DNA of 64,000 bases from a virus (lineage: Duplodnaviria > Heunggongvirae > Uroviricota > Caudoviricetes): the IMG/VR virus record IMGVR_UViG_2526164631_000023; one strand, written 5' to 3'. Positions 13,806-60,948 of this stretch are shown here, in pieces. The stretch's first letter is position 1, and each line of letters starts with the position of its first letter. The notes below the pieces were generated by a model. It searched no databases, was not told the origin of the DNA, and saw only the letters and a program-made list of their open reading frames with translations. The position numbers were made by a program, and so were the translations under genes.

Positions 13806-14028
13806 TATGTGTGCTGTAGGGAAAGGTTTACGTTAAATGTGTGCTGCCGGGAAACCCCATTGCTCAAGATGTGTTGTAGAGGGAATGGTAATGGCAACAT
13901 GTGTGCTGGAGGGGAATTTCGCATGTAAAGAGCGTCATTTATCCCTCCAGCACACATCTGAAATAAGCAATCCTCTGAAATTCCCTCCACCACACATCCA
14001 GACATGAAACTATCCCTTCAGCACACAT
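13806..14028. repeat. incA-like iteron array downstream of repA: ~7 RepA iterons in both orientations
   Basis: ATGTGTGCTG(t/c/g)(a/c)GGGAA copies at 13807, 13836, 13869, 13899 and reverse copies CAGCACACAT at 13948, 13989, 14020. Confidence 0.8.
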
Positions 14029-14892
14029 TTAATCTGTTGGTTTAAGTTTCGGATTCCGAGAGTGAACGATAATGAAGTTTTCACGACCTTGCTTTTCAAT
14101 GGTGCAATCGAGATAACCTATTGTTTTTAACTGGTCTATAGCTTTTTTTATCGTTCTGTTTTGCTCACTTACCGATGACATCAAGGCTAATCTTTCACGT
14201 ATTCTGGCAAATGAAATAGGTATTGGACGTGCCGGGAGGCTTTCTATAAAGGTATATATGGCCTGGGCTGCTTCTTTTTTAGGTAAAGCGCGAAGTGCGT
14301 GTTGCTGTAGAAGCACCCGATAGTCTAGCTGGAAGATTTCCCATAACTTGGAATCAGCCTCCAGTTCAACGACATCTGTTTCAAAGTCAAAATATCCCGT
14401 TTTAAGCAGGCCAGTATTGTAGCTTCCACGAGCACTTTTCCCTCTTTTGAATGAGATGCCTTTGTTGCGTAACCGACCTAAAGAATCGTGGATCGTGTTT
14501 CTTAATTTCCCATCAAGTCGCTTAGATGGAAATCCGCACGCCTTTGCAAATTCTTGAAAAGAAAGGCGAATTGTATTCGATGATAAGCCATACTTGCTAA
14601 ATGAGTAGATTACCCCAATCCAGACTTTGAAATCAGTATCCATGTCCAAGCGAGGGCCAGTGATCTTGATGTTGTCGTAGCCTTCTGCTTGAGCTATTTC
14701 CAATTTGGAAAAAACAGATGATGCATCTATCTCGTTGTTTTCACCCTGTTTTTTAGTTGGTTTAGGGACGAAAACACCAAGCCGCATAAGTGCGACAGGT
14801 TGAACAGTATTGTTCGAATTAACTGTTAATTCTTTAGCCTTGCTTTCAATGTCAGCATAAAGAATATCAGAGATAAATGACTTATCCATCAA
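14029..14892 (-). CDS. repA: Plasmid replication initiator RepA (P1 R-replicon type)
   Basis: 287 aa beginning MMDKSFISDILYADIESKAKELTVNSNNTVQPVALMRLGVFVP, closely matching P1 RepA as remembered; flanked by cognate iterons. Confidence 0.85.
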   Translation of the reverse strand: MMDKSFISDILYADIESKAKELTVNSNNTVQPVALMRLGVFVPKPTKKQGENNEIDASSVFSKLEIAQAEGYDNIKITGPRLDMDTDFKVWIGVIYSFSKYGLSSNTIRLSFQEFAKACGFPSKRLDGKLRNTIHDSLGRLRNKGISFKRGKSARGSYNTGLLKTGYFDFETDVVELEADSKLWEIFQLDYRVLLQQHALRALPKKEAAQAIYTFIESLPARPIPISFARIRERLALMSSVSEQNRTIKKAIDQLKTIGYLDCTIEKQGRENFIIVHSRNPKLKPTD

Positions 14893-14949
14893 TAAGTTAC
14901 CGTCATGTTGTGAATAAAGTTTACGACAGTGGATATCCGGCTTTTTTTC

Positions 14950-15050
14950 CCATCAGCACACATCCTACATCCCGCCAGCACACATGTAAAACCCTCCAGC
15001 ACACATATTTTTCCCGTCAGCACACATCGTTCTCCCTCCAGCACACATCT
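14950..15050. repeat. incC-like iterons: five direct CAGCACACAT-containing repeats at ~21-bp spacing upstream of repA
   Basis: Copies at about 14954, 14976, 14997, 15019 and 15039. Confidence 0.8.
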
Positions 15051-15089
15051 GAATAGTGGTTAAAGCCTTATGTGGCGCGGCCTGAAGAG

Positions 15090-30265: not shown

Positions 30266-30568
30266 CTCGGTACCAGCGGTGAAAAGATCCCCCTGTTGAG
30301 TACGGCTAACACATGGAGTGCACGCCAGACTTTCAACGGCGGGATCACCGGGGCGCTGACAGGGAATGCCGACACCGCGACGAAATTGAAAACAGCACGC
30401 ACGATTGGCGGTGTGGTATTTGATGGCTCGGCCAATATCAACCTTCCAGGTGTAAATACAACAGGTAACCAGAACACCACCGGGAATGCTGCTACCGCGA
30501 CAAAACTTGCGACGGCAAGAAACATCAACGGTGTTAAGTTTGATGGCTCAGGCGATATCAAGGTTTAG
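30252..30568 (+). pseudogene. Third, short tail-fibre 3' cassette (S'') lacking a start codon; possible remnant
   Basis: First 142 bp ~96% identical to 24369-24510; encodes ..GLRELGTSGEKIPLLSTANTWSARQTFNGGITGALTGNADTATKLKTARTIGG..GDIKV; stop overlaps invertase stop. Confidence 0.5.
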
Positions 30569-31125
30569 GATTGAAATGATGACGCCGGAAACTTCTTATA
30601 AAGCGTGGAAACAGCCACATCATAGATGATTGCAACCTGCTTACGGGGGATGCCCTTCTCCAGCAATCGCCGCATTTGCTGCCATGTTTCTTCTTGGTAT
30701 TTAGGCCGACGCCCACCTATACGACCTTCTGCGCGAGCTGCATCAAGTCCAGCGCGTGTACGTTCAACGATAAGCTCGCGTTCCATTTCTGCCAGCGCCC
30801 CCATTACGTGAAAGAAAAAGCGCCCCATTGGTGTACTGGTGTCGATGGAGTCAGTGAGACTCCGGAAGTTAATGCCTTTGTCACGAAGCTCTTCCACCAG
30901 CACAACCAAGTGACGCATGCTGCGCCCAAGACGATCTAACTTCCATACGACTAGGGTGTCACCTCTGGAAAGCATACGGAGAACCTTTTTTAACCCAGGG
31001 CGTTCAGCCTTTTTGCCGCTCGCCTTATCCTCAAAAATTAGCTCACATCCTGCGCTTTCAAGGGCGTTTCGTTGTAAAGCTGTGTTTTGGTCATTAGTTG
31101 ATACGCGAATGTATCCAATAAGCAT
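30565..31125 (-). CDS. Serine DNA invertase, Hin/Gin/Cin/Min family
   Basis: From ATG (complement 31125) MLIGYIRVSTNDQN..GDTLVVWKLDRLGRS..MGALAEMERELIVERT.. with catalytic Ser in the YxRVST motif and C-terminal HTH; SD aagggg upstream; track start 31185 is an in-frame upstream extension. Confidence 0.9.
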   Translation of the reverse strand: MLIGYIRVSTNDQNTALQRNALESAGCELIFEDKASGKKAERPGLKKVLRMLSRGDTLVVWKLDRLGRSMRHLVVLVEELRDKGINFRSLTDSIDTSTPMGRFFFHVMGALAEMERELIVERTRAGLDAARAEGRIGGRRPKYQEETWQQMRRLLEKGIPRKQVAIIYDVAVSTLYKKFPASSFQS

Positions 31126-31229
31126 ATGTCCCCCTTGTATGTTAAGGAGGGAGATTTTAGAAGATGTCCTGTAAGGAAATAACAAACTGACTAAGTTAGT
31201 GGCGCATTAGATGTTATTTCTGGAGGGGT

Positions 31230-31556
31230 ATGTTTGCAGATTATGAAAATCTGGCTGTAGTAGTCATAACATCCCTACTAAGTGGAACCGGCGTATTCCT
31301 TCTCGGAGTTAGAGACGGGCGCATTTCTGCGTCCCTGCTCAATCTTGCGAGTGAATTGTTTACTGCGGTAACAGCCGGGCTTGCGGGGTATGGGGTGGCG
31401 GTTAGCCAAGAATGGCCTGAAGGTATCATTTTCTGCGTTGTTCTGATTGCCAGTAACAACGGTAGTGAAATTTTACAGGGCTTAAAGTCCAGAGCTAGTA
31501 ACGTCTTGAATCTCTTAAGCGTAATAGCGAATGGGGGAAAAGGTGGAGAGAAATAA
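31230..31556 (+). CDS. Holin-like small membrane protein (P1 LydA position)
   Basis: 108 aa with hydrophobic segments; SD ggagggg; first gene of a long rightward operon. Confidence 0.4.
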   Translation: MFADYENLAVVVITSLLSGTGVFLLGVRDGRISASLLNLASELFTAVTAGLAGYGVAVSQEWPEGIIFCVVLIASNNGSEILQGLKSRASNVLNLLSVIANGGKGGEK

Positions 31557-32002
31557 TGGGTAACTTTGGAAATTATTTCATTTTTATCATGGCATTTGTT
31601 GCCATCATTGACCGTTTCATTTTTCGTCGCAAGAGTGTTGAGATTTTGAGTATTGGTGACGCTGTAGTGAAAGAATCCGCTATAGCATTTCCTGTTTCGC
31701 TACGTGTTAAGCGAAGCTGGGTCAGCAATGCTCAAATCGAATATTGGTTGCAAGACCTGAAAAATCCATCTGTGGTTATTTCAGGGAAAACGCGACCAGT
31801 TGACGCCTCAAAACGCGGTGAGAGAGAAGAGTATTTGCTCATCGATACGAAATATCTTGAGCCAACGAAGTGGGATCTGAAAGTCACATTGACTAACGGT
31901 AACTGTCGACTGAATCCGCTTTATCGCATTTTCCCTATCAATGACTGCATAGAGCGCCAGTTTACGATCGAAAAGCGTGAAGGAGACTGGGATGTCAAAT
32001 AA
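31556..32002 (+). CDS. Membrane-anchored protein (P1 LydB position; possible antiholin)
   Basis: 148 aa, N-terminal hydrophobic FIFIMAFVAIIDRFIF; start overlaps previous stop. Confidence 0.35.
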   Translation: MGNFGNYFIFIMAFVAIIDRFIFRRKSVEILSIGDAVVKESAIAFPVSLRVKRSWVSNAQIEYWLQDLKNPSVVISGKTRPVDASKRGEREEYLLIDTKYLEPTKWDLKVTLTNGNCRLNPLYRIFPINDCIERQFTIEKREGDWDVK

Positions 32003-32612
32003 GAATAATTATGTTCTTCTTAATTATGATGAGTTAAACGAAAAGGGGCTGTCAAAACTCGTCAAAGAAATCAGCAAAGGTGGTTACAAGATAGCGAGGG
32101 TGATCCCTGCAAGTAATGGCAGGAAGAAAGATGGGATCATGACGCGCACGTTTACCCTTATTGGTATTGATGAACAGACAATGGAAGTTCAGGTTAACGA
32201 TACCGGTGATATATCTGGGATCAAACTGAATGGTAAAACAGTACCGTTCAAGCCAGTAAAAACAATGTCGGCTTTGGGGCAATCTCTTGCGGCTTTATTT
32301 AATCGCGGAGCAACTTCTTTCCAGAAGTCATTAGCTCGAAAACTTGCTCGTGCAGCAAAAAATATTGATGACGGAAATAAGAAGCGGCAGGGAGTTAAAT
32401 CTAACGCTCAGAAATTAGCTGAAGCGAAAGAATCACGTGATGCACTCCGTGAAGATATCGCTAATGCTAACGACAAACTGTCTAAACTCCAGAGCAAGTC
32501 AGACAAAGTAATGCAAGATACGGGTAATGTTAAAGCTGCCTTGTCTCAGGAAGTAGCTAAGACACGTGCTCTTAAAGAAGAAATCGCGCGCCTGGAGGAT
32601 GAGCATGATTAA
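31992..32612 (+). CDS. Coiled-coil protein (P1 Hdf position)
   Basis: About 206 aa from internal ATG (MSNKNNYVLL); track ORF starts 31977. Confidence 0.3.
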   Translation: MSNKNNYVLLNYDELNEKGLSKLVKEISKGGYKIARVIPASNGRKKDGIMTRTFTLIGIDEQTMEVQVNDTGDISGIKLNGKTVPFKPVKTMSALGQSLAALFNRGATSFQKSLARKLARAAKNIDDGNKKRQGVKSNAQKLAEAKESRDALREDIANANDKLSKLQSKSDKVMQDTGNVKAALSQEVAKTRALKEEIARLEDEHD

Positions 32613-34541
32613 CAATCCTTTACGAATTAATATTCAGTCTACTTTTGCTGATACGATCCCCGGCTATATGCCAAGTCGCTGGTCTTCAGAAGAATTAAGC
32701 GAAGATGACCTGATTTTTGAGGCGGCGACCTTAGAAGATATTGAGCTTGCCTATATGGGCAATGAAATTCTGGTTGTGTCTGACGAAGCTATGTTTGAGT
32801 CCATAACTACAACCAGAATTCGGTTAGCTCAAACAATGCGAGCTTTCGTCCGTGCGCTGAATCGTGGCCTGAATGGTACGAATATTATGGCAGGGACTGA
32901 TGAAGCCGGGACCGATGAAAATGGACGTAATTGTATTGGTGGTGCGATTATCGGTCGTGTACGTCGGGTAGCTAATATCCCTGTTTTGACCGCGCAGATA
33001 CCGCTTACTGACGGGCAGAGTACAAGCATAATTTTCCACTCTCCAACAGCTGACGGGGCAAAAATAAAGAGTAACGACGAGCTTGTTGCATTTCAGTTTT
33101 TACTTAATAAGCGTAACGTAACTCACGTTGTCGCCCCGATTGGTGGGAGAGATGTTTCTTTAAGCCAGGTATGCCAGGCGCTATCTAATTTGATTGAGCG
33201 TAACAGCGAAAAATTTAAGAAGGCAAAAGAGCGCCAGGACAAAATGAAGGCAGATATTGAGAGTTATCTCAATGAAGCAGATAAACTGGCAGAAGAACGG
33301 TCAATAATGATTGATCAGGTGGACGTTGCGCAACGTGGGCTGACTGAAAAGCGTGCTGCTCTTACGGAGATGCAAAAAAACTTGATGCCCAGAAAGCCAT
33401 CAACGAGGAATTACAAGCAAAACGCGATAAATTGTTGTCTGCTAAAGGTGAAAAAACGAAAGAACGAGCGTTTAGCGACCAGCTGCGACATGTAAAACAT
33501 AATCTTGCCATTGACGGAAAAACAGTGCTGGATAATGGCGCTGAAGTTAATTATGTCACGTCCGGCAGTGACAATTTCGTTACGATAGTAGCACCTGAAG
33601 GTAAATTCAGTATTGATGCCAGTGCTGTCAAAGGAGGCAGTTTGGCAGATGCTGCAACCAAATTACTTAAAGCCTACCGAGAGCATAACGCAGATAAATA
33701 TAAAGTTGATGTGTTACCAGGCCAGCAGGAAGACCCCGAACCACCACAGACAGACCCCGAGACGAACCCAGTATCACAACCAGAGAGCCAGGATGTAGGT
33801 AAATACCACTATGCACTTCAATCTCGCCCGGCTGGTGTTGGTGCTGTGCCGGATGGAAATAAAGCCGTGCTTGATCGTCCTGACCAGGCTGATCAGTATT
33901 ACGAATATGCTCGTCACGGTATCATTACGTATGACCGTAAACTGACAGATGAAGAAGTCAGCCAGTACGAGTTGCTCTATCTTCCTGATGAAGATGAGCT
34001 GAAAGATTTTGCAGGCCAATTGGTTGTGTCCAGCATGTCGAAACATATTGATGGCTATGTAGACCTGTTTGGCAGTGACCTGAAAACATTCAAGGCGCAA
34101 GTGAAAATTCTTTTCCGCAAAGCGTTTCCAAACGTGGCGTATCCACTTGGTGATGGGGAGAACCTTTTCATTATGGACGTATATAACGCCCTTCAAAATC
34201 ATTCAAACGAAGTAACGCCAGAGCCTGAATTAGCACCTGTAGTTGAGCCAGAATCACACCCACAAACAGCACCAGAGCAACAGCCAACGCCGGAAGACGC
34301 TGAAGAAGCGGCAACTGAAGCTGATCAGGAAGCAGATAAAGCACTGGAGTACCTAAAATCCGTCCCGGTGCAGTTTACATCTCGCGATCTGACGGTAATC
34401 AGTGCCGAACTTGACCATGTGCAGGAAGCTGCAAACGCTCTTATCAGTGCTGGTCGATACGACGAGAACGAATCAACGGTTGGCGCAGCAGTTGACTACC
34501 TGATCAACATTCTGGCTGAAATTCAGCAGGGAGGTGCTTAA
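32604..34541 (+). pseudogene. darA-like virion antirestriction/head gene split by +1/-2 frameshift in an A7 tract (33374-33380)
   Basis: ORFs 32566..33495 and 33432..34541 overlap in different frames; one extra A gives a continuous ~645-aa protein (..TEMQKKLDAQKAINEELQAKRDKLLSAKGEK..), size close to P1 DarA as remembered. Confidence 0.5.
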
Positions 34542-34915
34542 TGACTATCTCTGTTTTAGACCGTCTGAAATTGGGTAAAGAGCTATCAGATTTAATGCAG
34601 GCGCAGAAAACCGCGCCAGTATTACAACGCGTCGCCATTGGTAAGCAGATTGTTGATCTGATGCTTAAACTGGGGTTGGGTACTGCCGCTCAACCGATGT
34701 CGGAACCGCAACCACAACCACAGTCTGATCCTGTTGCAGATGAAGTTCCTAAGATAGTGACTGACTTCCTGGGCGGCGTGTTCACAAAGTCCACACAAAT
34801 GGAATTTATTGATGCGCTGCGTGGGATCTCAAACTATGTTGGCGAGTTCCTTACGTTGGAGCAGGCTAAAGAACAGACCATAAGCTGGGTGAAAGCCAAC
34901 GGTTATGCCGGGTAA
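34541..34915 (+). CDS. Hypothetical protein (P1 DdrA position), 124 aa
   Basis: ATG overlaps upstream stop; followed by a terminator. Confidence 0.3.
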   Translation: MTISVLDRLKLGKELSDLMQAQKTAPVLQRVAIGKQIVDLMLKLGLGTAAQPMSEPQPQPQSDPVADEVPKIVTDFLGGVFTKSTQMEFIDALRGISNYVGEFLTLEQAKEQTISWVKANGYAG

Positions 34916-34918
34916 TCA

Positions 34919-34941
34919 AAAGGGGGCGAAATGCCCCTTTC
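34919..34941 (+). terminator. Intrinsic terminator after the holin/darA-like operon
   Basis: aagggggc gaaat gccccctt then T-rich tcacttctctgttctc. Confidence 0.5.
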
Positions 34942-34997
34942 ACTTCTCTGTTCTCACATAAATCACACTCTTTTTACACTCACAGCTTTCTCTATAG

Positions 34998-36395
34998 TTG
35001 GAGTGTATTTTGAACAAATCAGTTACTTCTGCGCTTTCCGAGGCCGCAGATATTAACAGCGTCATTGCTCTGGTTTCTTCATTAGAGAGGAAAGAAACAC
35101 GCCTGGGGCGAAGTAGCTACGTAGTCACCAGCAAAGGTGCAGAGGTAAAGACGGCTTTTAAGGTCGTTGATGCCAGCAGTCTGATCATTTCGAACAACCT
35201 TGACGGTATGATTAACCCGGCCTTCCCGGAAGAACTCCAACCACGAGATCGTACCCGGCTATCCAGCAAACTCCAGGTTAACCGTATTGCCTCCAATTTA
35301 CGCCCGGCACAATTAACGGATTCCGGTATGAGCAGCCACGGAGCGCCGATAGTTGGTCCGGACAACGTTGTTGAATCCGGCAACGGAAGGAGTATGGGTA
35401 TCTGGCGTGCCTATGAGCAAGGACAGGCGGATGAGTATCGCCAGTACCTGATCGACCATGCGAAAGAGTTTGGTCTGAATCCTGACGAAATTTCGCAAAT
35501 GTCTATGCCCGTACTAGTGCGAGAAAGACTCACAGATGTAGACCGCGCTCAATTTGCCCGCGATTCAAACATTAGCGATCTGCAAGAGATGGCAGCAAGT
35601 GAAAAAGCGTATGCGGATGCGCAATTTCTCACTGAGAGCGTCATGGCGCTATTTAATCCTTCAGATGATGGAAATCTGCTGGCGCGGTCCAATGATGCGT
35701 TTATTCGTGCGTTTTTGCGCGAAATTGGCGATACAGCGACGGCAGGCTTGCTTACTGCCGATGGGCGTCCCACGAAACAGCTTATCGATCGCATCCAGAA
35801 TGCAATTTTTGCCAAAGCGTACAAGGATGAAAGGCTTGTTCGGCTAGTGTCGGAAGAGCCAGATCCGGAAATGCGTAATATCCTGACCGCATTAAATACG
35901 GCAGCCAGCGATTTTGCGCAAATGCAGTCGCTGTCTGGCGACGCTCACCATGACGCAGTAACAGGCTTAGTGGACGGTATAGAGCAGGTTAATGGCCTGG
36001 ATACACAGGCGATAGCAGCACTCCAGGAAGCAATTAATCTTGTACGTGAAGCCAAAGACAACGGTCAGGCCGTTGAAGAAGTGATCGCCCAAAGGGGGTT
36101 ATTCGGCGACAGTACACCGGAAGCTGAGGCATTGGCGTTATTCATCGTAGCAAATAATCGCAGTGCGAAGCGTATGGGGGCAGCATTCAAAAAAATGGCG
36201 CAAAAAATCAACGACGAGCTGACTCATAAACAACAGGCATTGGGCGATATGTTCGGCGGTGGCGATGTTGATCTGCGTCGTATTTTGTCTGCTGTATCTG
36301 ATGAAATTGAGGGTGAATTTGGCGAAGGGAAAGGTCTGAACTTTGCTATGTTTGAAAATTCTACAGATCTAAATAATTGCCGTACGGAAAACTAA
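34998..36395 (+). CDS. Hypothetical protein, 465 aa (start uncertain)
   Basis: ORF only; upstream AAATCACA late-promoter-like motif. Confidence 0.3.
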   Translation: MECILNKSVTSALSEAADINSVIALVSSLERKETRLGRSSYVVTSKGAEVKTAFKVVDASSLIISNNLDGMINPAFPEELQPRDRTRLSSKLQVNRIASNLRPAQLTDSGMSSHGAPIVGPDNVVESGNGRSMGIWRAYEQGQADEYRQYLIDHAKEFGLNPDEISQMSMPVLVRERLTDVDRAQFARDSNISDLQEMAASEKAYADAQFLTESVMALFNPSDDGNLLARSNDAFIRAFLREIGDTATAGLLTADGRPTKQLIDRIQNAIFAKAYKDERLVRLVSEEPDPEMRNILTALNTAASDFAQMQSLSGDAHHDAVTGLVDGIEQVNGLDTQAIAALQEAINLVREAKDNGQAVEEVIAQRGLFGDSTPEAEALALFIVANNRSAKRMGAAFKKMAQKINDELTHKQQALGDMFGGGDVDLRRILSAVSDEIEGEFGEGKGLNFAMFENSTDLNNCRTEN

Positions 36396-49365: not shown

Positions 49366-49401
49366 CAGATAAGGAGCGGCCCCAACCGGGGCCGAATTTG
49401 A

Positions 49402-49836
49402 ATGACGACATTAATTGACACTGTAAAACCGACGGAATCCTACCTTGATGACAATTTGCCGCAGGCGCTCAATGGCAGGAGTGAAGAGGCGTTTCTGGAT
49501 GCATATCTGAATGGCATGGTGGAAAGGCTGAAACGAGATCCACAGCTTTATCACCTTTATGGGCCGTGGTGGCCTGCGCTTAAAACGTTATTGCTGGAGC
49601 GCGGCGACATATCATTTGGACAAGTTGTAGATAGTGATGTGGCAGAGATCTACAAAATGAGTCGCCCGGCGCTTACGGTTTTGGCTGGGCATCTGTATTC
49701 GAGCGATCGCCTGGAAAATGACGCGGTATACAATCCTGTTCATGCTCTGGAAGTCGCACCTTATGCCGATGATACAGAGCCATACGTGTACACAAGTTAC
49801 GACGAGTCTATAGAGAAATATCGAATCATGGGGTAG
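49402..49836 (+). CDS. Hypothetical protein (144 aa)
   Basis: ORF only. Confidence 0.3.
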   Translation: MTTLIDTVKPTESYLDDNLPQALNGRSEEAFLDAYLNGMVERLKRDPQLYHLYGPWWPALKTLLLERGDISFGQVVDSDVAEIYKMSRPALTVLAGHLYSSDRLENDAVYNPVHALEVAPYADDTEPYVYTSYDESIEKYRIMG

Positions 49837-49838
49837 CC

Positions 49839-50099
49839 ATGCGAAAGAATCGTAGGTTTACGGTCGAAGACCTAAAGGAATATTCCATATCGAAGGGGTA
49901 TATCCTTGAGTTCCACCGATACAAGAAGGTTTTTACGCTGCGAAAAGCAGAAAACCCTGCGAACTGGAGCTGGATATACTTTCCTCACACCGATGATAAG
50001 TTGGTAGAACTTGTTGATGATTTAACCTATGAAGGTTGGTTGATCGCAATCGACAAGACAATCAAAGAATTATCCGAACAGGATAAAATAACCCTTTAA
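49839..50099 (+). CDS. Hypothetical protein (86 aa)
   Basis: ORF only. Confidence 0.3.
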   Translation: MRKNRRFTVEDLKEYSISKGYILEFHRYKKVFTLRKAENPANWSWIYFPHTDDKLVELVDDLTYEGWLIAIDKTIKELSEQDKITL

Positions 50100-50270
50100 A
50101 AATAACAGGTTGGGTAAATGCCATGCGATTTACCCTCCTTGTTGATTAAGGTCACTCTTTACTCTAAAAGCAAATCCGACCTGTTGCATATAGACCATCC
50201 TTGAGTAGTATCTCTCTTGTTTTACAAATCTAACGTTGTTGTTATTATTTCGCATATTTACTATCAATGA

Positions 50271-50287
50271 GTGTGTTAGAAAAATAG
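50271..50287 (+). promoter_or_regulatory. Operator-like motif copy c (GTGTGTTAGAAAAATAG)
   Basis: Upstream of the VRR-NUC gene. Confidence 0.4.
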
Positions 50288-50433
50288 CGCGAAAGAGAAG
50301 GCGTCGCAGTGAATATTCTGAAACATCCCCACATGCCGCAGCTCTTAGAGAACTGGAGAAAAACCCAGATCTAATCAAAAGGAACCATGAGCATTACGAG
50401 CAGGTTCGCGTCCTGGACTGGTTGTATCGCAAT

Positions 50434-50730
50434 ATGCGTTATGTGTATGAGCATACTCACGCCACTCCAAACGGTGGTCTGCGAGGCATAAGGACGGCAA
50501 TAAAAATGGTGGCAGAGGGCCAAAAGAAGGTATATCCCGATCTTTCTATAGACCTTGCTTGTGGGGGATACCACGGAATGCGCATTGAGATGAAACATGG
50601 GAGAAATCGCCTGACTCCCGAACAACTCGTCTGGATGACTCGCCTCACTGAAGCCGGTTACTACTGCTTTGAGGCGCGCAGTGCCGCTGAAGCCATAAAA
50701 GCTATCACGGAGTATGTTTGTCTTGATTAA
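50434..50730 (+). CDS. VRR-NUC domain nuclease (PD-(D/E)xK superfamily)
   Basis: YPDLSIDL..GMRIEMKHGRNRLTPEQLVWMTRL matches VRR-NUC pattern; the 5' part of track ORF 50236..50730 covers the operator, so start likely internal. Confidence 0.45.
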   Translation: MRYVYEHTHATPNGGLRGIRTAIKMVAEGQKKVYPDLSIDLACGGYHGMRIEMKHGRNRLTPEQLVWMTRLTEAGYYCFEARSAAEAIKAITEYVCLD

Positions 50731-50744
50731 ACGGAGAAATCGTT

Positions 50745-50945
50745 TTGCGTTTACTTAACGTGGCAGAACTTATCCCTGCAGGAACTAATGCTATCGCTCG
50801 TCGTCGCTCATGGCAGCAGGCTCTATGTATTGAGATCTCGAAACGTATCAATGGAAGTTTTGAAGCTCGCAATATTGTTACTGGCGATAAGGTTCACATA
50901 ACCCCGGAAAGTGCAAGCGCTGATGATTGGGAGTTTGTACATTGA
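50745..50945 (+). CDS. Small hypothetical protein (66 aa)
   Basis: ORF only. Confidence 0.25.
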   Translation: MRLLNVAELIPAGTNAIARRRSWQQALCIEISKRINGSFEARNIVTGDKVHITPESASADDWEFVH

Positions 50946-51241
50946 GCAAAAAATATTATGTGAGTCTGGCGTTCGCTGACGATGCGGGGAGGACGCGGAG
51001 TATCACGTTGAGCACACCGGTTAAGGCTGTGACAGCGCCGTTAATCCGTGAAGCTCTCAGAGAGCTGGAATTGGGGGAAAACTCGGCACTGTTGTCGGTT
51101 AGTTGGTTCGGGAAAATGTCAGAGAAACAATACGTGGATGGAGTTACCCCAATAACAGTAATGAGGCTACTTTCATTGCTGCAATGGGCCATCGTACCTG
51201 TATTTATCGCGTATCTTATTTATCAGGCTGCAACACAGTAA
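50927..51241 (+). CDS. Small membrane protein (104 aa, C-terminal TM)
   Basis: C-terminal VMRLLSLLQWAIVPVFIAYLIY hydrophobic segment. Confidence 0.3.
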   Translation: MGVCTLSKKYYVSLAFADDAGRTRSITLSTPVKAVTAPLIREALRELELGENSALLSVSWFGKMSEKQYVDGVTPITVMRLLSLLQWAIVPVFIAYLIYQAATQ

Positions 51242-51248
51242 TTGCATA

Positions 51249-51275
51249 AAAACCCGCCAATTAGCGGGTTTTTTG
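51249..51275 (+). terminator. Intrinsic terminator
   Basis: aacccgc caatta gcgggtt followed by TTTTGTTT. Confidence 0.7.
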
Positions 51276-51315
51276 TTTATTGCATCTTCCGATACCGTCA
51301 TCAAACTAATAAAAT

Positions 51316-51333
51316 ATGTTAGAAAACTAATTT
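51316..51333 (+). promoter_or_regulatory. Operator-like motif copy d (ATGTTAGAAAACTAATTT)
   Basis: Immediately upstream of gene at 51340. Confidence 0.4.
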
Positions 51334-51339
51334 AAAAAA

Positions 51340-52563
51340 GTGACGGGAACAGCAATGAGTCAACACACTGATACTTCTAATCTGGAAATTATCTCGACAG
51401 CAATTGAAACGCTGCGCACACAAATCGCTCTTATACAGAAACGGAATCCGGGTGATGACCTGTCAAAGCGACTGCACGAGAGTGTCATTGCCACTACAGA
51501 TAACCTGGTGGCGGAAATCAACAAGCTGCTTGATGATGGGGCAGTTGATTACAATAAGCTGGTGGATCAGTTTGAGGAATACCAACAAGCAGTTAATGAT
51601 GGCTTGATCCGTTTTTCACAAGTCACAGGCGTATCAGCGACAGTTGAAAGCCTGGGTGATGCAGTTAATCAATTTGCCGCGAATATGCGTAATGAGATCG
51701 GCAATCTGGAAGCGCGTCTTGAACAGGCAAATACACTGCGTAAATCTGCCGAAGCCGATTTGAACCGTTACAAAAAAGACTATCCGCCAAGCCTGACAAA
51801 GCGGCTGGATGTTGCGGAGAAGGATAACCGCACGCTGAAAAGAGAGCGCCGGGAACTAAAAGAGCGTTTAACCAAGCTCAATCAGCAATGCATTGATTAT
51901 CAAGGCGAAGGCGTCACACTGCGTAAAAAGTTGGCTACAGCGCAGAGCATTATCGAAACATTAAAGCGAGAGTGCTCACAGCTTGGTCACGATCTGAACC
52001 GTGCTTGTGGCATGGGACAAAGACCAGAGACATTTCCACTTATGTATGATGGAAGGGATGCCATTGCCTACATCCATGAGTATCCGCACGGCCTGGTTGC
52101 GGAAACTGGGCAGCGTGGCGAAGCACTGCTGACGGCTAATTACCATCAACAAATCAGAACCAATCGCCTGTTAACGATGGATGTGATCCCATCGGTATGG
52201 GGAACGCCGCTTTACTATCGCCTGCCGGGCTTCGAAAAGGACTGGAATACCGACATAGACGAATGTCTCGCAGATAAAATTATGGCGTACCTGGAGACGG
52301 ATTTTCCGCGCTTATATCGCCGGATTATGGACTCTAAGGATGCGCCAATCGATGAATTAAAAATGCGTCCGGAGACGCTGGAGGCAATCAAGCAGACGGA
52401 GTTTGATACTGTATTCAGTGTGGCCTGCATTCCAAGCTGTTTCCATGAAAGCATCCCGTTCATGCAAGGAGATCGTCGTCAGGAAATCATTGACGCTTGC
52501 CGGGTATGGGCGAACGAATGGGATAAGAAGAATGGGGGTGTAGAAGATCTTTATGGGAAATAA
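51340..52563 (+). CDS. Hypothetical protein, N-terminal coiled coil plus C-terminal globular domain (407 aa)
   Basis: GTG start; alternative ATG at 51355. Confidence 0.3.
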   Translation: MTGTAMSQHTDTSNLEIISTAIETLRTQIALIQKRNPGDDLSKRLHESVIATTDNLVAEINKLLDDGAVDYNKLVDQFEEYQQAVNDGLIRFSQVTGVSATVESLGDAVNQFAANMRNEIGNLEARLEQANTLRKSAEADLNRYKKDYPPSLTKRLDVAEKDNRTLKRERRELKERLTKLNQQCIDYQGEGVTLRKKLATAQSIIETLKRECSQLGHDLNRACGMGQRPETFPLMYDGRDAIAYIHEYPHGLVAETGQRGEALLTANYHQQIRTNRLLTMDVIPSVWGTPLYYRLPGFEKDWNTDIDECLADKIMAYLETDFPRLYRRIMDSKDAPIDELKMRPETLEAIKQTEFDTVFSVACIPSCFHESIPFMQGDRRQEIIDACRVWANEWDKKNGGVEDLYGK

Positions 52564-52564
52564 T

Positions 52565-52582
52565 GTGTTAGAAATCTAAAAT
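52565..52582 (+). promoter_or_regulatory. Operator-like motif copy e (GTGTTAGAAATCTAAAAT)
   Basis: Start of the non-coding region upstream of the tRNA cluster. Confidence 0.4.
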
Positions 52583-52720
52583 CACAATTCGAATGTATTG
52601 ATTGTGAAGATAACTTAACATAGAATTTTCCTTGCTGGTGGGCGGTACCCACGTTTCGCTTGCTGGGCTTGATAGTCACTTATTGGTTATTGTTCGCCCA
52701 CCAGCATTTAACAAATTAAA

Positions 52721-52737
52721 GTGTTAGAAATGTATAG
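52721..52737 (+). promoter_or_regulatory. Operator-like motif copy f (GTGTTAGAAATGTATAG)
   Basis: Second copy in the same non-coding region. Confidence 0.4.
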
Positions 52738-53798
52738 TAATGCAAGAGCACGCTTTGGCACCGTGCAGGCCAAAGTTCAGCAGGTTTAGTGCGGAAAGTG
52801 GTTTCAGAGAGAGCACTTTGCGGAGTAAACGACAATACATGTTGAGCCACGGAAGGTCTTTTTAAGGTGTTCATTGATGATGGTCCGGCAGAGAGTAACG
52901 GTACATGCTGCATCTAATCATCAATGCACATCTTCAACATTAAGGAGGCATAGGGATTTTTGTGGCGGTTACCTTTTGCCCTGAGTCTCCTTAATGTTGC
53001 GGTAATGCACCTATGCGGATGTGGCCTTGCATTGTGTCTTGAAAGAATGGGGTAAGGCCGGGGATATCCCCAGGGGGAGGCACCCCCGCTGCAACGAACA
53101 GCCACAGACGGCAGTCGAGTGATGGAAACGTGTAAAGACTTTAAACCTCGTTACGGCTGGCGTGGCAAACGCGACAACCGAGACAGAGCGGTGACGGGCG
53201 GAGAGAGTGCCGCATCAAGAAAGAAGCCGACTTGTGATCCCTTTCAGCGGGCATTTGAAAGTGAATCCAGCTCAGGCAGTCGGCTTCTTTCTTGTGTGAG
53301 ATGTAGCGTATTTGCCCATCTTCGGGTGGGCTTTTTTAGGGTTTTCGTCATGGTTAGCGACTTTGCGGCGGTTTAGAAACTGACCATTAAAGTAAATGCA
53401 AACGATGATCTGATGATGGTAGCGGCCTAAGAAGCCAGACGCCACGGGGTATGAGTCGTCCCCCGTCAAAAAAATCGACCGCAGAGTGTCCCCGTCTGTG
53501 TATTAGGGAACGGGGAGGCATAACAGGCAAGGGCGCTGGTGTGATTAACCAGATGAATGAGAAGGGTCAGGTCTTTCTGGTCAGCGCCCTTACCTGTTGC
53601 GTCCTTCCCGCGTAACAGCCATTGCTTAATGGCATCCTGGGAGAACTTCTTGTAACGGGTATATCCCGTCATGCTGAAGGCGCTAATCACGCTGGAAGCC
53701 AGGGTTGTGCATCCCCTGTTACCGAATTGCAGCCAGGGCGCGGTGCGCCGAAAAGCATACGGAGGTGGAAGCCCTCGCCGGAGACGTACCCGGCAAGT

Positions 53799-53874
53799 GA
53801 TGGTGTAGCTCAGTAGGATAGAGCAGCAGCCTTCTAAGCTGTCGGTAGGTGGTTCGAATCCACCCACCATCGCC
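53799..53874 (+). tRNA. tRNA-Arg (anticodon TCT)
   Basis: Hand-folded cloverleaf: acceptor gatggtg/caccatc, T-arm ggtggTTCGAATccacc, anticodon loop cTTCTAa, 3' CCA encoded. Confidence 0.65.
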
Positions 53875-53879
53875 AATTT

Positions 53880-53967
53880 AGGGGAGTTAGTCCGTAGGGG
53901 TAGCGGGGTAGACTGTAAATCTACTGTCATTGCGACTCGGGTGGTTCGACTCCATCACTCCCCACCA
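53880..53967 (+). tRNA. tRNA-Tyr (anticodon GTA), long variable arm
   Basis: Acceptor ggggagt/actcccc, anticodon stem-loop gtaga-cTGTAaa-tctac as in E. coli tRNA-Tyr, T-loop TTCGACT, CCA encoded; D-arm irregular. Confidence 0.55.
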
Positions 53968-53971
53968 AATT

Positions 53972-54047
53972 GCCGGTTTAGCTCAGTTGGTAGAGCAGTC
54001 GCTTTGTAAGCGAATGGTCAGCGGTTCGATCCCGTTAACCGGCACCA
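53972..54047 (+). tRNA. tRNA-Thr (anticodon TGT)
   Basis: Acceptor gccggtt/aaccggc, D-arm gctcAGTTGGTAgagc, anticodon loop tTTGTaa, T-loop TTCGATC, CCA. Confidence 0.65.
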
Positions 54048-54501
54048 ACACAACAGGTAAGAGCATTTGTAGAGTTCGACTCTCTACCGTGGGCTTTTTC
54101 CCGCGATGCGAGCCATAAATGCTCTTACCGTTGTGATGAAGTGCAGCTCTTTGAAGCAACCAGAAGATAAGCATCTGGCTTCACAACATAAACCGCAGGA
54201 ACGACCAATAAACGGTAGTCCGTATGGAGAACACCCCGTTGAGGAAGAGGTCTGGCCGGAACCGTAACCGGCACTACAACGTTGAGAACACTGGCGTAAC
54301 GGGGTCATATCCCAATCTACGAATAAATGTTGCGTTGCAGCGTGACAACCAGTGTTCTCAACATTGTGGTGAATGCGCAGGCTGATGCGCGAAAGACATT
54401 GCAGCTATTGCGGAAAAGAGCTGTTCGGCGGGGCAATTAAACGCCCGTGAGAGTCTGAAATAACCGCAAGCCGGAGATCAGCACCGGTCGCCACAATAAC
54501 G

Positions 54502-54588
54502 GGAGAGTAGGGAGCATGGTGCTCAAGCGGTCTTGAAAACCGTCCCATTGCGCAAGCGATGATGGTTCGATTCCATTACTCTCCGCCA
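54502..54588 (+). tRNA. tRNA-Ser (anticodon TGA), long variable arm
   Basis: Acceptor ggagagt/actctcc, anticodon stem-loop gcggt-cTTGAaaa-accgt (as in E. coli serT), T-loop TTCGATT, CCA. Confidence 0.55.
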
Positions 54589-54879
54589 GTGCAACGTTAA
54601 GAGTATTTGGCTAATTAAGCGAATGCCGGAAGCAGAACCGGATCACCAAATGCGTACAGGCGTCATCGCCGCCCAGCCAGCCAAGTGCTCTTACCATTGC
54701 GGTGAATGCGGCTAAGCGCACGCGGAACAGTTAAAACAGTAAAGGTGGTCTTTTTACTGGCGTAACGAGAATCCATAAGTGATCCGGCGTTAATTGTTAA
54801 CTGGTTAACGTCACCGGGAGGCACCCGGCACCGCAACCTAACAGCAATGGCGTTTTGTCTTAAAAGGTGGCTGCAAGTG

Positions 54880-55008
54880 ATGGATTTTTGGGCGTTTGCC
54901 GATAAAAACCCGGAGTGGACATTATTGTTTCTGCTGGTGGTTGCATACGGGGTAGAGCAAGCGGCAAAAGCCTTACGCGGTTCTGGCAAAAAGCGTAAGC
55001 GTAATTAA
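54880..55008 (+). CDS. Candidate small hydrophobic peptide (42 aa) between tRNA-Ser and tRNA-Ile
   Basis: SD aaggtgg 9 nt upstream of ATG; MDFWAFADKNPEWTLLFLLVVAYGVEQAAKALRGSGKKRKRN. Confidence 0.25.
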   Translation: MDFWAFADKNPEWTLLFLLVVAYGVEQAAKALRGSGKKRKRN

Positions 55009-55017
55009 CAGTAATCT

Positions 55018-55093
55018 GGCCCTTTAGCTCAGTGGTTAGAGCGGGCGACTCATAATCGCACGGTCACCGGTTCAAGTCCGGTAGGGGCCACCA
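55018..55093 (+). tRNA. tRNA-Ile2 type (anticodon CAT, ileX-like)
   Basis: ggccctttagctcagtggttagagc..gactCATAAtcgc..ggttcaagtcc..aggggccacca is near-identical in layout to E. coli ileX as remembered. Confidence 0.7.
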
Positions 55094-55545: not shown

Positions 55546-56121
55546 ATGTTAATGGCGAACGATAACGCATATGCAGAAGAAGATCTCATTTTGAGTGACT
55601 TCATAGGGAAGCGGGAACGCTGGACCAAAAAGCGAGAGGAACTTTACGCCTCATTAGTTCGCAAAGGCGTCAATATCGAAACCGCACAGAGCGGTGATAT
55701 GACAGTGGTAAGCGTGGATTTGCACGGTGTAAGCGTGTCAGCAATCAATCATGAGCCATACGTTGCGTTATCCGAGTCAATGGTAAGGTTAGTTAAGTTC
55801 CTGAAGTACACAGAAGCGAATAATGTAATCATTGGCAAAAAGAATATCCCTTTTTCCTCGGCTTTTTACTGGATGATGAAAGGGCTTGATGCCCGGCGGA
55901 CATCATGGCCTAAAGGGAGCTATATATCGATGTTCCGTGGCAGCATTGGCAGCAAAGAAAAGCTCTTCGAATTCTTGCCGGAAGAGGCATTCGATATTGT
56001 GGAAGGGTGCGATGTGATGGTGATGCCTCGCCTGGTAATGATGAATGGTGATTTACAGGCGCAGACAGACTGGTTTGCAACTGGTGTGGATATTATCGCG
56101 ACTGACTGGGAGGCTTTCTGA
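55546..56121 (+). CDS. Hypothetical protein (191 aa), C-terminal ..ATDWEAF
   Basis: ORF; C-terminus resembles small phage DUF-type domains. Confidence 0.3.
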   Translation: MLMANDNAYAEEDLILSDFIGKRERWTKKREELYASLVRKGVNIETAQSGDMTVVSVDLHGVSVSAINHEPYVALSESMVRLVKFLKYTEANNVIIGKKNIPFSSAFYWMMKGLDARRTSWPKGSYISMFRGSIGSKEKLFEFLPEEAFDIVEGCDVMVMPRLVMMNGDLQAQTDWFATGVDIIATDWEAF

Positions 56122-59910: not shown

Positions 59911-60948
59911 TTACCAGAGCTTTGCGGCGTGCTGCGTTTGGGGGAATGTGTATCCGTAACGTTCTTCGATTGCTTTGCCGTATTTTTTACGCGCTTCATT
60001 CAGTTTGATGCCGGTCAGGTCGTCTCCAGAGGCCATCATTACGTCTAACAATTCCAGATCCATTTTATCCAGCCTTGCCATTGCTTCACGCGATGTACGA
60101 ATCTTACGTTCAATGATATGGCGAATGGCCGGATCGGCATCCTCCAGCATCTTAGCGGATTTCTGCTTAAGGTTTTCGTTGCGAATATCGATGTTCCTTA
60201 AGATGTACGACTTCGCAACGTAGCTTGGCTGGTGTTTTTCCAGGTCACGAACACGATATAAGTTAAAATCGCCGAGAAGGCTGCAAGGTACCGATTCGAC
60301 GCCAGAATAAATTGTAATGCTCCGGCGTTCACCAACATTATTGACAACGGGGATCGTTGTCTTCGGTAGTCTTGCGAAAACCAATGCGCCATGTGCGCCA
60401 ACTCTAAAGCGAGAAAGGGCATTGCTGCCTTCGATGTTTGTTGTCAGCACAACATCTGTATATGCCTCTTTACGCGCCCGGTAGATCTCGCCTTCAGGCT
60501 CAGCTTCAAAGAAGCGCTGTTCTTCTTCAAGAGCACCTACGATTTGAGAAAAAACCCTATTTTTCAGGCTTTTCTTTATGATTTTGTCGTATTTTTTGAG
60601 CAATTGCTCACGTGTAAATGTACGTGTTGTTGTAGCGCTTTGCACAACAACATGCGTGCTTTGATTGGTGTCCTCAATGATGAATGGGATCGGAGAATAT
60701 ACAGACTCAACAATGTTCGACGCTTTGCCGTCGGCATCGCGACACATGTCAACGAAGGCTTTCCATTCAGCAAGACATTTTTCAGCTTCTTCTAATATGT
60801 TTTGGTCATGCGTTAATGCAACATGGCGGAATTCCTCGCCAGCATAACTGGTATCATGGAAAACAGAGTTTGCGACCACCAGCTCTTTCCACCGTTCAGC
60901 GGTTTGCAGGAACCGTTTGTACTCTTTCTCGATCGACTTCTTACTCAT
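59911..60948 (-). CDS. Protein at the P1 c1 position (345 aa): candidate master repressor
   Basis: Divergent from the recombinase across the rox region; operator-like motif overlaps its upstream region; no sequence-level confirmation. Confidence 0.3.
   Translation of the reverse strand: MSKKSIEKEYKRFLQTAERWKELVVANSVFHDTSYAGEEFRHVALTHDQNILEEAEKCLAEWKAFVDMCRDADGKASNIVESVYSPIPFIIEDTNQSTHVVVQSATTTRTFTREQLLKKYDKIIKKSLKNRVFSQIVGALEEEQRFFEAEPEGEIYRARKEAYTDVVLTTNIEGSNALSRFRVGAHGALVFARLPKTTIPVVNNVGERRSITIYSGVESVPCSLLGDFNLYRVRDLEKHQPSYVAKSYILRNIDIRNENLKQKSAKMLEDADPAIRHIIERKIRTSREAMARLDKMDLELLDVMMASGDDLTGIKLNEARKKYGKAIEERYGYTFPQTQHAAKLW

Follow-up and report, generated by a model that had tools for sequence, protein, structure and literature searches.

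The six genes between darB and the tRNA cluster of this element form, with a probability that we put at about 80%, a backbone segment that is fixed in D6-type P1-family phage-plasmids and is divided into three expression units. These units would be the end of the darB operon (genes ulx and ORF2), a pmgM-ORF4-pmgR unit ended by a canonical terminator, and pmgS, which has its own putative promoter overlapped by a repressor operator. We analyzed a stretch of 64,000 nucleotides (the window), in which six ORFs lie on the same (+) strand between darB, ending at 49365, and the tRNA cluster, starting at 53799, where an earlier note on this DNA had placed them. The locus comprises the following features:

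49377-49394, + strand: GC-rich hairpin in the 36-nt darB-ulx spacer (-16.2 kcal/mol, z -3.7)
49402-49836, + strand: ORF1, 144 aa, Ulx homologue (P1 ulx by tblastn, phrog_1629, D6 orf14)
49839-50099, + strand: ORF2, 86 aa (phrog_6844, E 2.9e-52)
50103-50144, + strand: stable hairpin 3' of ORF2 (-17.7 kcal/mol, z -4.1), listed as terminator-like, with a weak or absent U tract
50236-50730, + strand: ORF3, 164 aa, PmgM homologue, standalone VRR-NUC (PD-(D/E)xK) nuclease (P1 PmgM, PF08774, 4QBL)
50272-50290, + strand: operator-like site GTGTGTTAGAAAAATAGCG over codons 13-19 of ORF3 (exact core match)
50745-50945, + strand: ORF4, 66 aa, possibly a minimal DUF2829/Tad2-like fold
50942-51241, + strand: ORF5, 99 aa, distant PmgR homologue (reciprocal phrog_9115/phrog_3177 cross-hits)
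51248-51273, + strand: canonical intrinsic terminator closing the pmgM-ORF4-pmgR unit (10-bp stem, then U run)
51310-51333, + strand: putative pmgS promoter -10 (TAAAAT, 51310-51315), overlapping operator copy 'c' (51315-51333; repeat family D8)
51355-52563, + strand: ORF6, 402 aa, PmgS homologue with an N-terminal coiled coil of ~215 aa and a conserved C-terminal domain (phrog_1660, P1 PmgS, AF2)
52564-52582, + strand: operator copy 'd', part of the downstream tRNA-containing operon and not of the six ORFs (motif match, position)
52720-52738, + strand: second operator copy, forming a pair with 'd' (motif match, recurrence in relatives)

Judged by its sequence, the source element is a D6-type P1-family phage-plasmid. 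The locus is 99.3% identical in nucleotide sequence to phage D6 (NC_050154 / MF356679) over its whole length, where the same six genes are orf14-orf9, and 100% identical to the E. coli plasmid NZ_CP066033.1. The window is collinear with D6 throughout, the hdf-darA-ddrA-ddrB operon included; within the six-gene block the two show only point differences, and downstream of it, in the tRNA / tciAB segment, the window diverges. The D6 genome was reportedly described by Gilcrease and Casjens in 2018, and its record already annotates similarity to P1 ulx, pmgM, pmgR and pmgS together with two hypothetical genes. All six ORFs are genuine genes. Each has a strong PHROG profile match (E 1e-47 to 1e-146) and stays open, with zero indels, in a 92%-identical relative, against which ORF2-ORF6 have at least as many synonymous as non-synonymous codon changes. 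An Rfam search of the block returned no RNA family. Because the six genes belong to the D6 genome as a constant part that has been annotated before, the finding is largely ordinary. The earlier note could name no system for any of the products; four of the six have named P1 homologues (ulx, pmgM, pmgR, pmgS).

Gene content and order proved constant wherever the locus was compared. The 5.4-kb stretch is present in one piece and collinear in about 105 plasmids, and the order DarB-Ulx-ORF2-PmgM-ORF4-PmgR-PmgS is the same in six relatives (L006, L009, L011, L013, L014, L015) at 32-99% amino-acid identity, falling to 32-72% at the far end. The comparison of the slot across relatives for cargo turnover, which the earlier note had proposed, revealed none. 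Variable cargo lies instead downstream of pmgS, between pmgS and lpa, where different relatives carry tRNAs, tciAB, a YcaO cluster, or a Tn3 with SIR2/DUF87.

The first unit would be the tail of the darB operon. ulx starts at 49402, directly 3' of darB and in the same order as in P1; ORF1 matches P1 Ulx at 46% identity over 138 aa (tblastn, E 9e-38) and phrog_1629, 'Ulx-like anti-restriction', at E 1.7e-58. By homology, ORF1 is Ulx, a component of the P1-type Dar anti-restriction system and a counter-defence gene. The remaining Dar genes are present at another place in the element, as the D6 Dar operon aligns to window positions 30559-36355 (97.8%), which puts hdf, darA, ddrA and ddrB in the same genome. 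In P1, Ulx is packaged into the capsid, and the DarB-dependent defence of injected DNA from type I restriction by EcoB/EcoK requires it (PMC12810830, PMC9024508); its homologue here would be expected to act in DarB-dependent anti-restriction in the same way. For 'olxA', the RefSeq product name of some Ulx homologues, we found no trace in the literature. The darB-ulx spacer is unchanged in the 92%-identical relative (100% conservation); its hairpin has no U tract and is therefore not a canonical terminator.

ORF2 is specific to the D6 lineage, with only 6 protein clusters found and 52-63% identity in distant relatives. The arrangement resembles the P1 darB-ulx-lxc operon, in that darB and ulx are followed by a same-strand gene of ~82-86 codons: lxc (bof) encodes 82 aa in P1, ORF2 86 aa here, and the corresponding gene 81-85 aa in relatives. 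In contrast to the third gene of the P1 operon, however, ORF2 has no detectable Lxc/Bof similarity. Homology to Lxc/Bof was rejected at the sequence level (hhalign probability 0.2%, shuffle p 0.14-0.2), ORF2 and P1 Lxc fall into different PHROGs, and a search of D6-type plasmids for Lxc gave no match. Profiles of ORF1 and ORF2 matched nothing among PDB sequences.

The second unit would comprise pmgM, ORF4 and pmgR. The VRR-NUC nuclease reported earlier among the ORFs was confirmed in ORF3, which is 57% identical to P1 PmgM, itself annotated as VRR-NUC (E 4e-41), and matches PDB 4QBL 'VRR-NUC' at E 2e-12; with Pfam PF08774 it reaches E 3.4e-4 (21.1 bits, just below the gathering score of 23.8). 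Its catalytic residues are intact, YPD(101-103)...E118-M-K120 aligning with YPD...EIK of 4QBL. Where VRR-Nuc proteins of prokaryotes and viruses stand alone, they are resolvases of Holliday junctions that act as dimers and cleave four-way junctions (PMC4103454). ORF3 resembles 4QBL and its relatives in being single-domain and in the alignment of PD...ExK and the conserved Gln region, and differs from them in a basic N-terminal extension of ~45 residues. PmgM is most likely a dimeric Holliday-junction or branched-DNA resolvase, and would act on replicating or recombining phage DNA. Its TTG start lacks a Shine-Dalgarno sequence; the start codon is uncertain, and the operator-like site lies inside the reading frame.

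ORF5 most likely starts at TTG 50942, a start codon with a GGGAG ribosome-binding site that overlaps the stop of ORF4. BLAST gave no match between ORF5 and P1 PmgR. Their profiles cross-hit reciprocally (ORF5 to phrog_3177, E 2e-6; P1 PmgR to phrog_9115, E 1.8e-3), and both proteins contain the motifs KKY.., ..AF.. and SxxGKM(S/T)E.Q. In P1, pmgR is essential for head completion and the joining of heads and tails (PMC9024508). Residues 76-94 of ORF5 form a membrane-grade hydrophobic segment (Kyte-Doolittle 1.99), and since this C-terminal transmembrane-like helix is absent from P1 PmgR, the role of ORF5 may differ. ORF5 is the only one of the six ORFs with a segment of this grade; of the two ORFs that the earlier note credited with hydrophobic segments, the second has just the LLLLFRIF start of ORF3. 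The terminator after ORF5 is the sole canonical one and is internal, the hairpins at 49377-49394 and 50103-50144 not being canonical, and the description of the block as bounded by terminators did not hold. L009 and L011 carry a terminator of different sequence at the same place.

ORF4 occurs in the D6 lineage only and is the fastest-evolving gene of the block; all homologues found lie between a VRR-NUC gene and a pmgR-like gene. Structure comparison indicated weak fold similarity to Tad2/AcrIIA7. Foldseek against the PDB found no Tad2, a profile search against PDB sequences was negative or insignificant, and hhalign against two Tad2-like proteins gave an insignificant probability of 7%. Long repeat proteins (PKD, FG-GAP repeats) returned by an exhaustive ORF4 search were spurious. 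ORF4 differs from the small anti-defence proteins of the Tad2 / DUF2829 / AcrIIA7 type in that, with E values as high as 10 admitted, Pfam PF11195 matches neither it nor six diverged members of its family, whereas the window's own Tad2-like protein matches at E 1.1e-9, and in that its gene is fixed in a conserved operon and not in a variable locus. It is a tentative and rather unlikely proposal that ORF4 is a minimal DUF2829/Tad2-type protein sequestering an immune signalling nucleotide, or is AcrIIA7-like, and that ORF2, though without sequence similarity to Lxc/Bof, fills the role of this C1 co-repressor in D6-type elements. The possible Tad2-like fold is cheap to test. If the proposal were true, ORF4 would be unusual for its fixed place next to a junction nuclease in a conserved early operon under repressor control, and not in a variable anti-defence locus.

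The third unit would be pmgS, which encodes a coiled-coil protein and is dispensable for P1. ORF6, most likely starting at ATG 51355, matches phrog_1660 over its full length (E 1.4e-146) and P1 PmgS at 21% identity over 415 aa (E 1.4e-11). Of the earlier description as a 407-aa coiled-coil protein, the coiled coil stands, as residues ~9-217 are helical and coiled-coil-like in the AF2 secondary structure; the length is 402 aa. The AF2 model of PmgS is poor (pLDDT 61, pTM 0.28), and the ORF6 profile against PDB sequences returned coiled-coil noise only. At the spot of the putative pmgS promoter, L009 and L011 carry TTTACA/TTTACT-16-TATAAT, followed by the operator motif.

This 19-bp motif, TGTGTTAGAAAWYTAAWWT, has 9 exact core matches and 2 one-mismatch copies in the window, against 0.84 expected. 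Copies lie upstream of c1, just after the cre-like gene, and upstream of repL, icd-ant, lpa (one-mismatch), pmgS and the tRNA operon, at the places of, in this order, the P1 operators Op99, Op2, Op53, Op51, Olpa, Op86 and Op72. Set against the placement of P1-type C1 operators, the motif occurs at the equivalents of the c1, ref/cra, repL, c4-icd-ant, lpa, pmgR-pmgS and ban operon promoters, and these positions are kept in diverged relatives. The copy upstream of pmgS is also reminiscent of OpmgRa/b, the operators that P1 carries upstream of pmgR-pmgS. By this analogy, the motif behaves as a putative repressor operator, in support of the earlier suggestion. The operator sequence is a different one: the D6-type motif TGTGTTAGAAAWYTAA shares 9/14 core bases with the P1 operator and does not match the 17-bp P1 C1 operator consensus ATTGCTCTAATAAATTT. 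A tblastn comparison of the D6 C1 protein with P1 C1 gave no match at 1e-5, so it is by its position that the motif is assigned to C1, as a candidate interaction.

Homologies, synteny and the statistics and positions of the motif are what the analysis observed; the protein that binds the motif, the timing of expression and every biochemical activity we infer. On this reading the motif would serve the D6-type C1 repressor as its operator, and the repressor would silence pmgM-ORF4-pmgR, pmgS and the tRNA operon in the plasmid prophage; induction would then release all three early. A D6-type operator at the regulatory points of the P1 C1 operators would directly supply a map of the early regulon. 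The two copies c and d were said to precede the block. The motif itself is real, but c (51315) precedes ORF6 only and d (52564) comes after the block, with further copies at 50272 and 52720. The 92%-identical relative retains the 50272 site, and L009 and L011 have related ATTAGAAAA / TTTAGAAG sequences upstream of pmgM. The pair at 52564 and 52720 recurs just after pmgS in L006, L009, L011, L013 and L015, and has its P1 analogue in Obanab, which precedes trnA...ban.

In some copies the motif stands directly before a -10-like TAAAAT, and one copy precedes the major capsid gene, with late-promoter-like motifs beside it, as would be expected of a recognition element for the late activator Lpa. 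However, the 7-39 kb structural gene region holds zero copies, the late operons are repeatedly preceded by another motif, AAATCACA-N7-TAnnCT, and the genes with a copy upstream include lpa itself, c1, repL and icd-ant, all early and under C1 control in P1. We regard a late-promoter role as most improbable. The P1 late-promoter element (AACAARTGAYT) showed no enrichment, with 4 matches where 6.5 were expected, and had no match upstream of the six genes. What precedes pmgS is a repressor operator with a sigma-70-type promoter and no late-promoter motif, which argues against all six being virion morphogenesis genes with PmgS as scaffold, as the 'pmg' names and PHROG 'head and packaging' might suggest. 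Although the D6 GenBank record names orf9 'putative prohead scaffolding protein' and phrog_1660 carries a head and packaging label, no separate scaffold is named in the P1 virion study, and PmgS is absent from its main text. P1 PmgR is needed for head completion and Ulx is capsid-internal (PMC9024508, PMC12810830), yet PmgM is a nuclease, and P1 pmgS and pmgM deletions and knock-downs have no plaque defect (PMC10695390, citing PMC9024508). We consider this very improbable. The products are not all replication or morphogenesis proteins, the outcome against which the earlier note had set its reading, given that Ulx is anti-restriction and that P1 pmgM and pmgS are dispensable.

The same note had taken the block for an accessory island or cargo slot. 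ORF2 and ORF4 are indeed lineage-restricted, and ORF4 combines its weak Tad2/AcrIIA7 fold similarity with the fastest evolution, as exchangeable defence or counter-defence cargo under repressor control might; yet content and order are strictly conserved across the plasmids and diverged relatives above, and the true variation lies downstream of pmgS. P1 ulx, pmgM and pmgS are dispensable (PMC10695390) and the operators are genuine, but pmgR, the P1 counterpart of ORF5, is a gene for morphogenesis (PMC9024508). ORF1, as Ulx, is a counter-defence protein (PMC12810830), and this much of the proposed cargo stands; PADLOC defence models gave only low-scoring coiled-coil matches to ORF6 (JetC/LmuB) and one ORF1 hit at E 0.0098, and NCBIfam models only coiled-coil noise. 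An island is improbable and largely refuted by synteny. As backbone and not a defence or counter-defence slot, the stretch is unsuitable for mining as an "island", and the main value of the analysis is to avert that misreading.

Among the closest parallels to the backbone segment is the P1 pmgL-pmgM ... pmgR-pmgS region (C1 operators Op82, Op83, Op86). The two share the order of their pmgM, pmgR and pmgS homologues and the placement of repressor operators, adjacent to pmgM and ahead of pmgS, while the operator sequence and the transmembrane-like tail of the D6-type PmgR set the two apart. P1 has pmgL before pmgM, and pmgN, pmgO, pmgP, ppp and pmgQ between pmgM and pmgR, where the D6-type elements have a single 66-codon gene (ORF4). 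The D6-type pmg block is fused to the darB-ulx operon, whereas in P1 the two lie ~68 kb apart.

The region holding the six ORFs (ORF1-ORF6) shares 99.3% identity with Escherichia phage D6 (NC_050154 / MF356679) and 100% with E. coli plasmid NZ_CP066033.1, and D6 is collinear with the whole window in reverse orientation. Phage D6 is a plasmid prophage of the P1 family. With P1 as reference, its record labels orf14-orf9 as ulx-like, hypothetical, pmgM-like, hypothetical, pmgR-like, and pmgS-like. The segment is conserved D6-type phage-plasmid backbone that has already been annotated, and it consists of the end of the Dar anti-restriction operon, followed by a pmgM-ORF4-pmgR unit and then pmgS, both putatively under C1 control.

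As the earlier note had described, the interval from the darB stop (49365) to the tRNA cluster (start at 53799) contains six same-strand ORFs. All are real genes, matching phage protein families (E 1e-47 to 1e-146) and staying open, with no indels, in a 92%-identical relative. Against the same relative, synonymous codon changes were at least as numerous as non-synonymous ones in ORF2-ORF6 (104 vs 22 in ORF6). The block had been thought to be bounded by terminators; its sole canonical terminator is internal. The starts and hairpins are as follows.

50942 (+), TTG, corrected, most likely start of ORF5; it overlaps the stop codon of ORF4 and has a ribosome-binding site (GGGAG)
51355 (+), ATG, corrected, most likely start of ORF6
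51248-51273, canonical terminator after ORF5
49377-49394 and 50103-50144, stable hairpins lacking U tracts

Homologues of PmgS or ORF4 led to six relatives, in Raoultella and in metagenome assemblies. The order DarB-Ulx-ORF2-VRR_NUC-ORF4-PmgR-PmgS is identical in all six, and a 5.4-kb stretch occurs in one collinear piece in about 105 plasmids at 91-100% identity. In the five diverged relatives, amino acid identity to the window is 61-70% for Ulx, 52-63% for ORF2, 67-72% for PmgM, 32-50% for ORF4, 39-60% for PmgR, and 45-55% for PmgS. Every ORF4 homologue recovered by exhaustive search occupies the same position in the gene order. Variable DNA sits 3' of pmgS: five tRNAs in the window, tRNAs and tciAB in D6, a pentapeptide/ABC/YcaO cluster in one relative (L013, 8032-10201), and Tn3 in another (L009, 10603-13800). 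In a further relative (L012, 1-6308), darB through pmgM gives way to a Tn3-family transposon that carries SIR2 and DUF87 genes. The proposal of an accessory island or cargo slot is unsupported, since the order is conserved and the variation lies downstream of pmgS.

ORF1 is Ulx: it shares 46% identity with its P1 namesake (E 9e-38), and its gene lies directly 3' of darB, the same arrangement as in P1. P1 Ulx is among six capsid-internal Dar proteins and, together with DarB and DdrB, counters type I restriction by EcoB/EcoK (PMC12810830; PMC9024508); P1 ulx, pmgM, and pmgS are non-essential (PMC10695390). The suggestion of counter-defence functions is partly right, in that Ulx is a Dar anti-restriction component; the accessory-island idea is wrong. 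In some records the Ulx homologue is named 'olxA' (L005, a relative, 2503-2937, NZ_CP147095.1; CP057521.1), a product name for which we found no literature. ORF2 (86 aa) holds the position of P1 lxc (82 aa); similarity to P1 Lxc was not detectable, and no Lxc match was found in D6-type plasmids.

The VRR-NUC assignment of ORF3 was borne out, as a prediction from sequence. ORF3 matches the solved VRR-NUC structure 4QBL (E 2e-12), with its YPD...EMK aligned to the catalytic YPD...EIK, while the Pfam VRR-NUC match falls slightly under the gathering score (E 3.4e-4). ORF3 is PmgM, 57% identical to its P1 homologue. Standalone VRR-Nuc proteins, viral and bacterial, are dimeric Holliday-junction resolvases (PMC4103454). 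The pmgM start and transcript are uncertain, because, within 50221-50290, a good sigma-70-like promoter, TTTACA-16-TGTATTAT, overlaps the sole available in-frame starts of ORF3 (TTG 50236/50239, lacking a Shine-Dalgarno sequence) and an operator-like site lies inside codons 13-19. Reciprocal PHROG cross-hits support ORF5 as a distant PmgR. Loss of pmgR in P1, where the gene is essential, leaves heads and tails unjoined (PMC9024508). Two ORFs had been credited with hydrophobic segments; a membrane-grade segment is present in ORF5 only (residues 76-94). ORF6 is assigned as PmgS by homology (phrog_1660, E 1e-146; 21% identity to P1 PmgS, E 1e-11). Described earlier as a 407-aa coiled-coil protein, it is indeed helical over residues 9-217, but its corrected length is 402 residues.

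ORF4 carries ARRxSW and C-terminal DWEFV motifs reminiscent of DUF2829/Tad2. No member of its family matches Pfam, and Tad2 was not among the matches of a Foldseek search against PDB. Its best BFVD match, a 66-aa DUF2829 protein, is weak (E 0.05), as is its similarity to the window's own Tad2-like protein (BLAST E 0.003; hhalign probability 7%). The latter is a 191-aa protein (55546-56121, +) whose C-terminal domain is clearly Tad2-like (Thoeris anti-defence 2, PF11195; E 1.1e-9). Its gene sits between the tRNA region and lpa, a location conserved in relatives L011 and L015. D6 encodes a second Tad2-like protein, orf114 (E 7.7e-23). As counter-defence candidates, both rank above the six ORFs.

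The four operator copies noted earlier almost certainly belong to repeat family D8 (6557, 40369, 51315 (c), and 52564 (d)). The motif core, TGTTAGAAAWNTA, has nine exact and two one-mismatch matches vs 0.84 expected. A copy within darB is probably due to chance; the others are listed here.

16-28 nt upstream of the c1 start
just 3' of the cre-like gene
5' of repL
5' of icd-ant
about 85 nt upstream of lpa (one mismatch)
50272, 5' end of pmgM
51315 (c), upstream of pmgS
52564 (d) and its partner 52720, both 5' of the tRNA operon
upstream of the major capsid gene, with no P1 C1-operator counterpart

The P1 record places C1 operators Op82/83, Op86, and Op72 at the equivalents of the pmgM, pmgS, and tRNA-operon copies; Op99, Op2, Op53, Op51, and Olpa, whose places in P1 are established, correspond to the c1, cre-like, repL, icd-ant, and lpa copies. 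Of the 14 core bases, nine agree with the P1 operator. Motif positions are kept in relatives despite diverged flanking DNA, and in those relatives the pmgS copy lies directly 3' of a TTTACA-16-TATAAT promoter. Given this copy number, positional equivalence, core likeness, and persistence, we accept the motif as the putative operator of a C1 repressor of D6 type; that C1 is the binding protein is our inference, since tblastn gives D6 C1 no match to P1 C1 at 1e-5. The earlier idea of repressor control is partly right. Copy c would control pmgS alone; d and its partner belong to the next operon. The window's 345-aa 'C1' repressor (59911-60948, -) matches only D6, and neither P1 nor P7 C1, by tblastn against the phage collection at E 1e-5; its counterpart in one relative has a precomputed Phage_P7_repressor_C1 Pfam match.

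From 53311 onward, the leader of that next operon matches the leader of the P1 ban operon at 89% identity. The non-coding stretch 53311-53877 (P1 counterpart 68855-69425) matches about 480 P1-type plasmids and opens with a terminator-like hairpin (53314-53331); DNA to its left is D6-specific, giving a sharp mosaic boundary.

53799-55093 (+), five tRNAs (Arg-TCT, Tyr-GTA, Thr-TGT, Ser-TGA, Met/Ile-CAT; ARAGORN and Rfam), on the same strand as neighbouring genes
54698-54835 (+), sub-threshold match to Rfam sRNA STnc100 (40.8 bits vs gathering score 47; E 2e-6), between tRNA-Ser and tRNA-Met

The D6 record (NC_050154, 7145-7850) has three tRNAs, for Asn, Thr, and Ser; they are placed on the opposite strand and differ in part in identity, which is likely an annotation discrepancy. 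The D6 tRNA-Ser/tciA/tciB segment gave no alignment of at least 400 bases in the window.

A candidate D6-type late-promoter element, AAATCACA-N7-TAnnCT, which differs from that of P1, occurs nine times vs 3.3 expected.

5181, 6577, 6632, 22648, 34960, 36407, 52579 (+), candidate late-promoter elements
42427, 61031 (-), candidate late-promoter elements

Copies precede the major capsid, R, ddrB, and portal genes; one lies directly 3' of operator d, and one, inverted, about 95 nt upstream of darB. Near a repA-like gene (13939-15053), at least eight clustered direct repeats of about 21-24 bp with a TCCCTCCAGCACACAT core are probably plasmid replication iterons.
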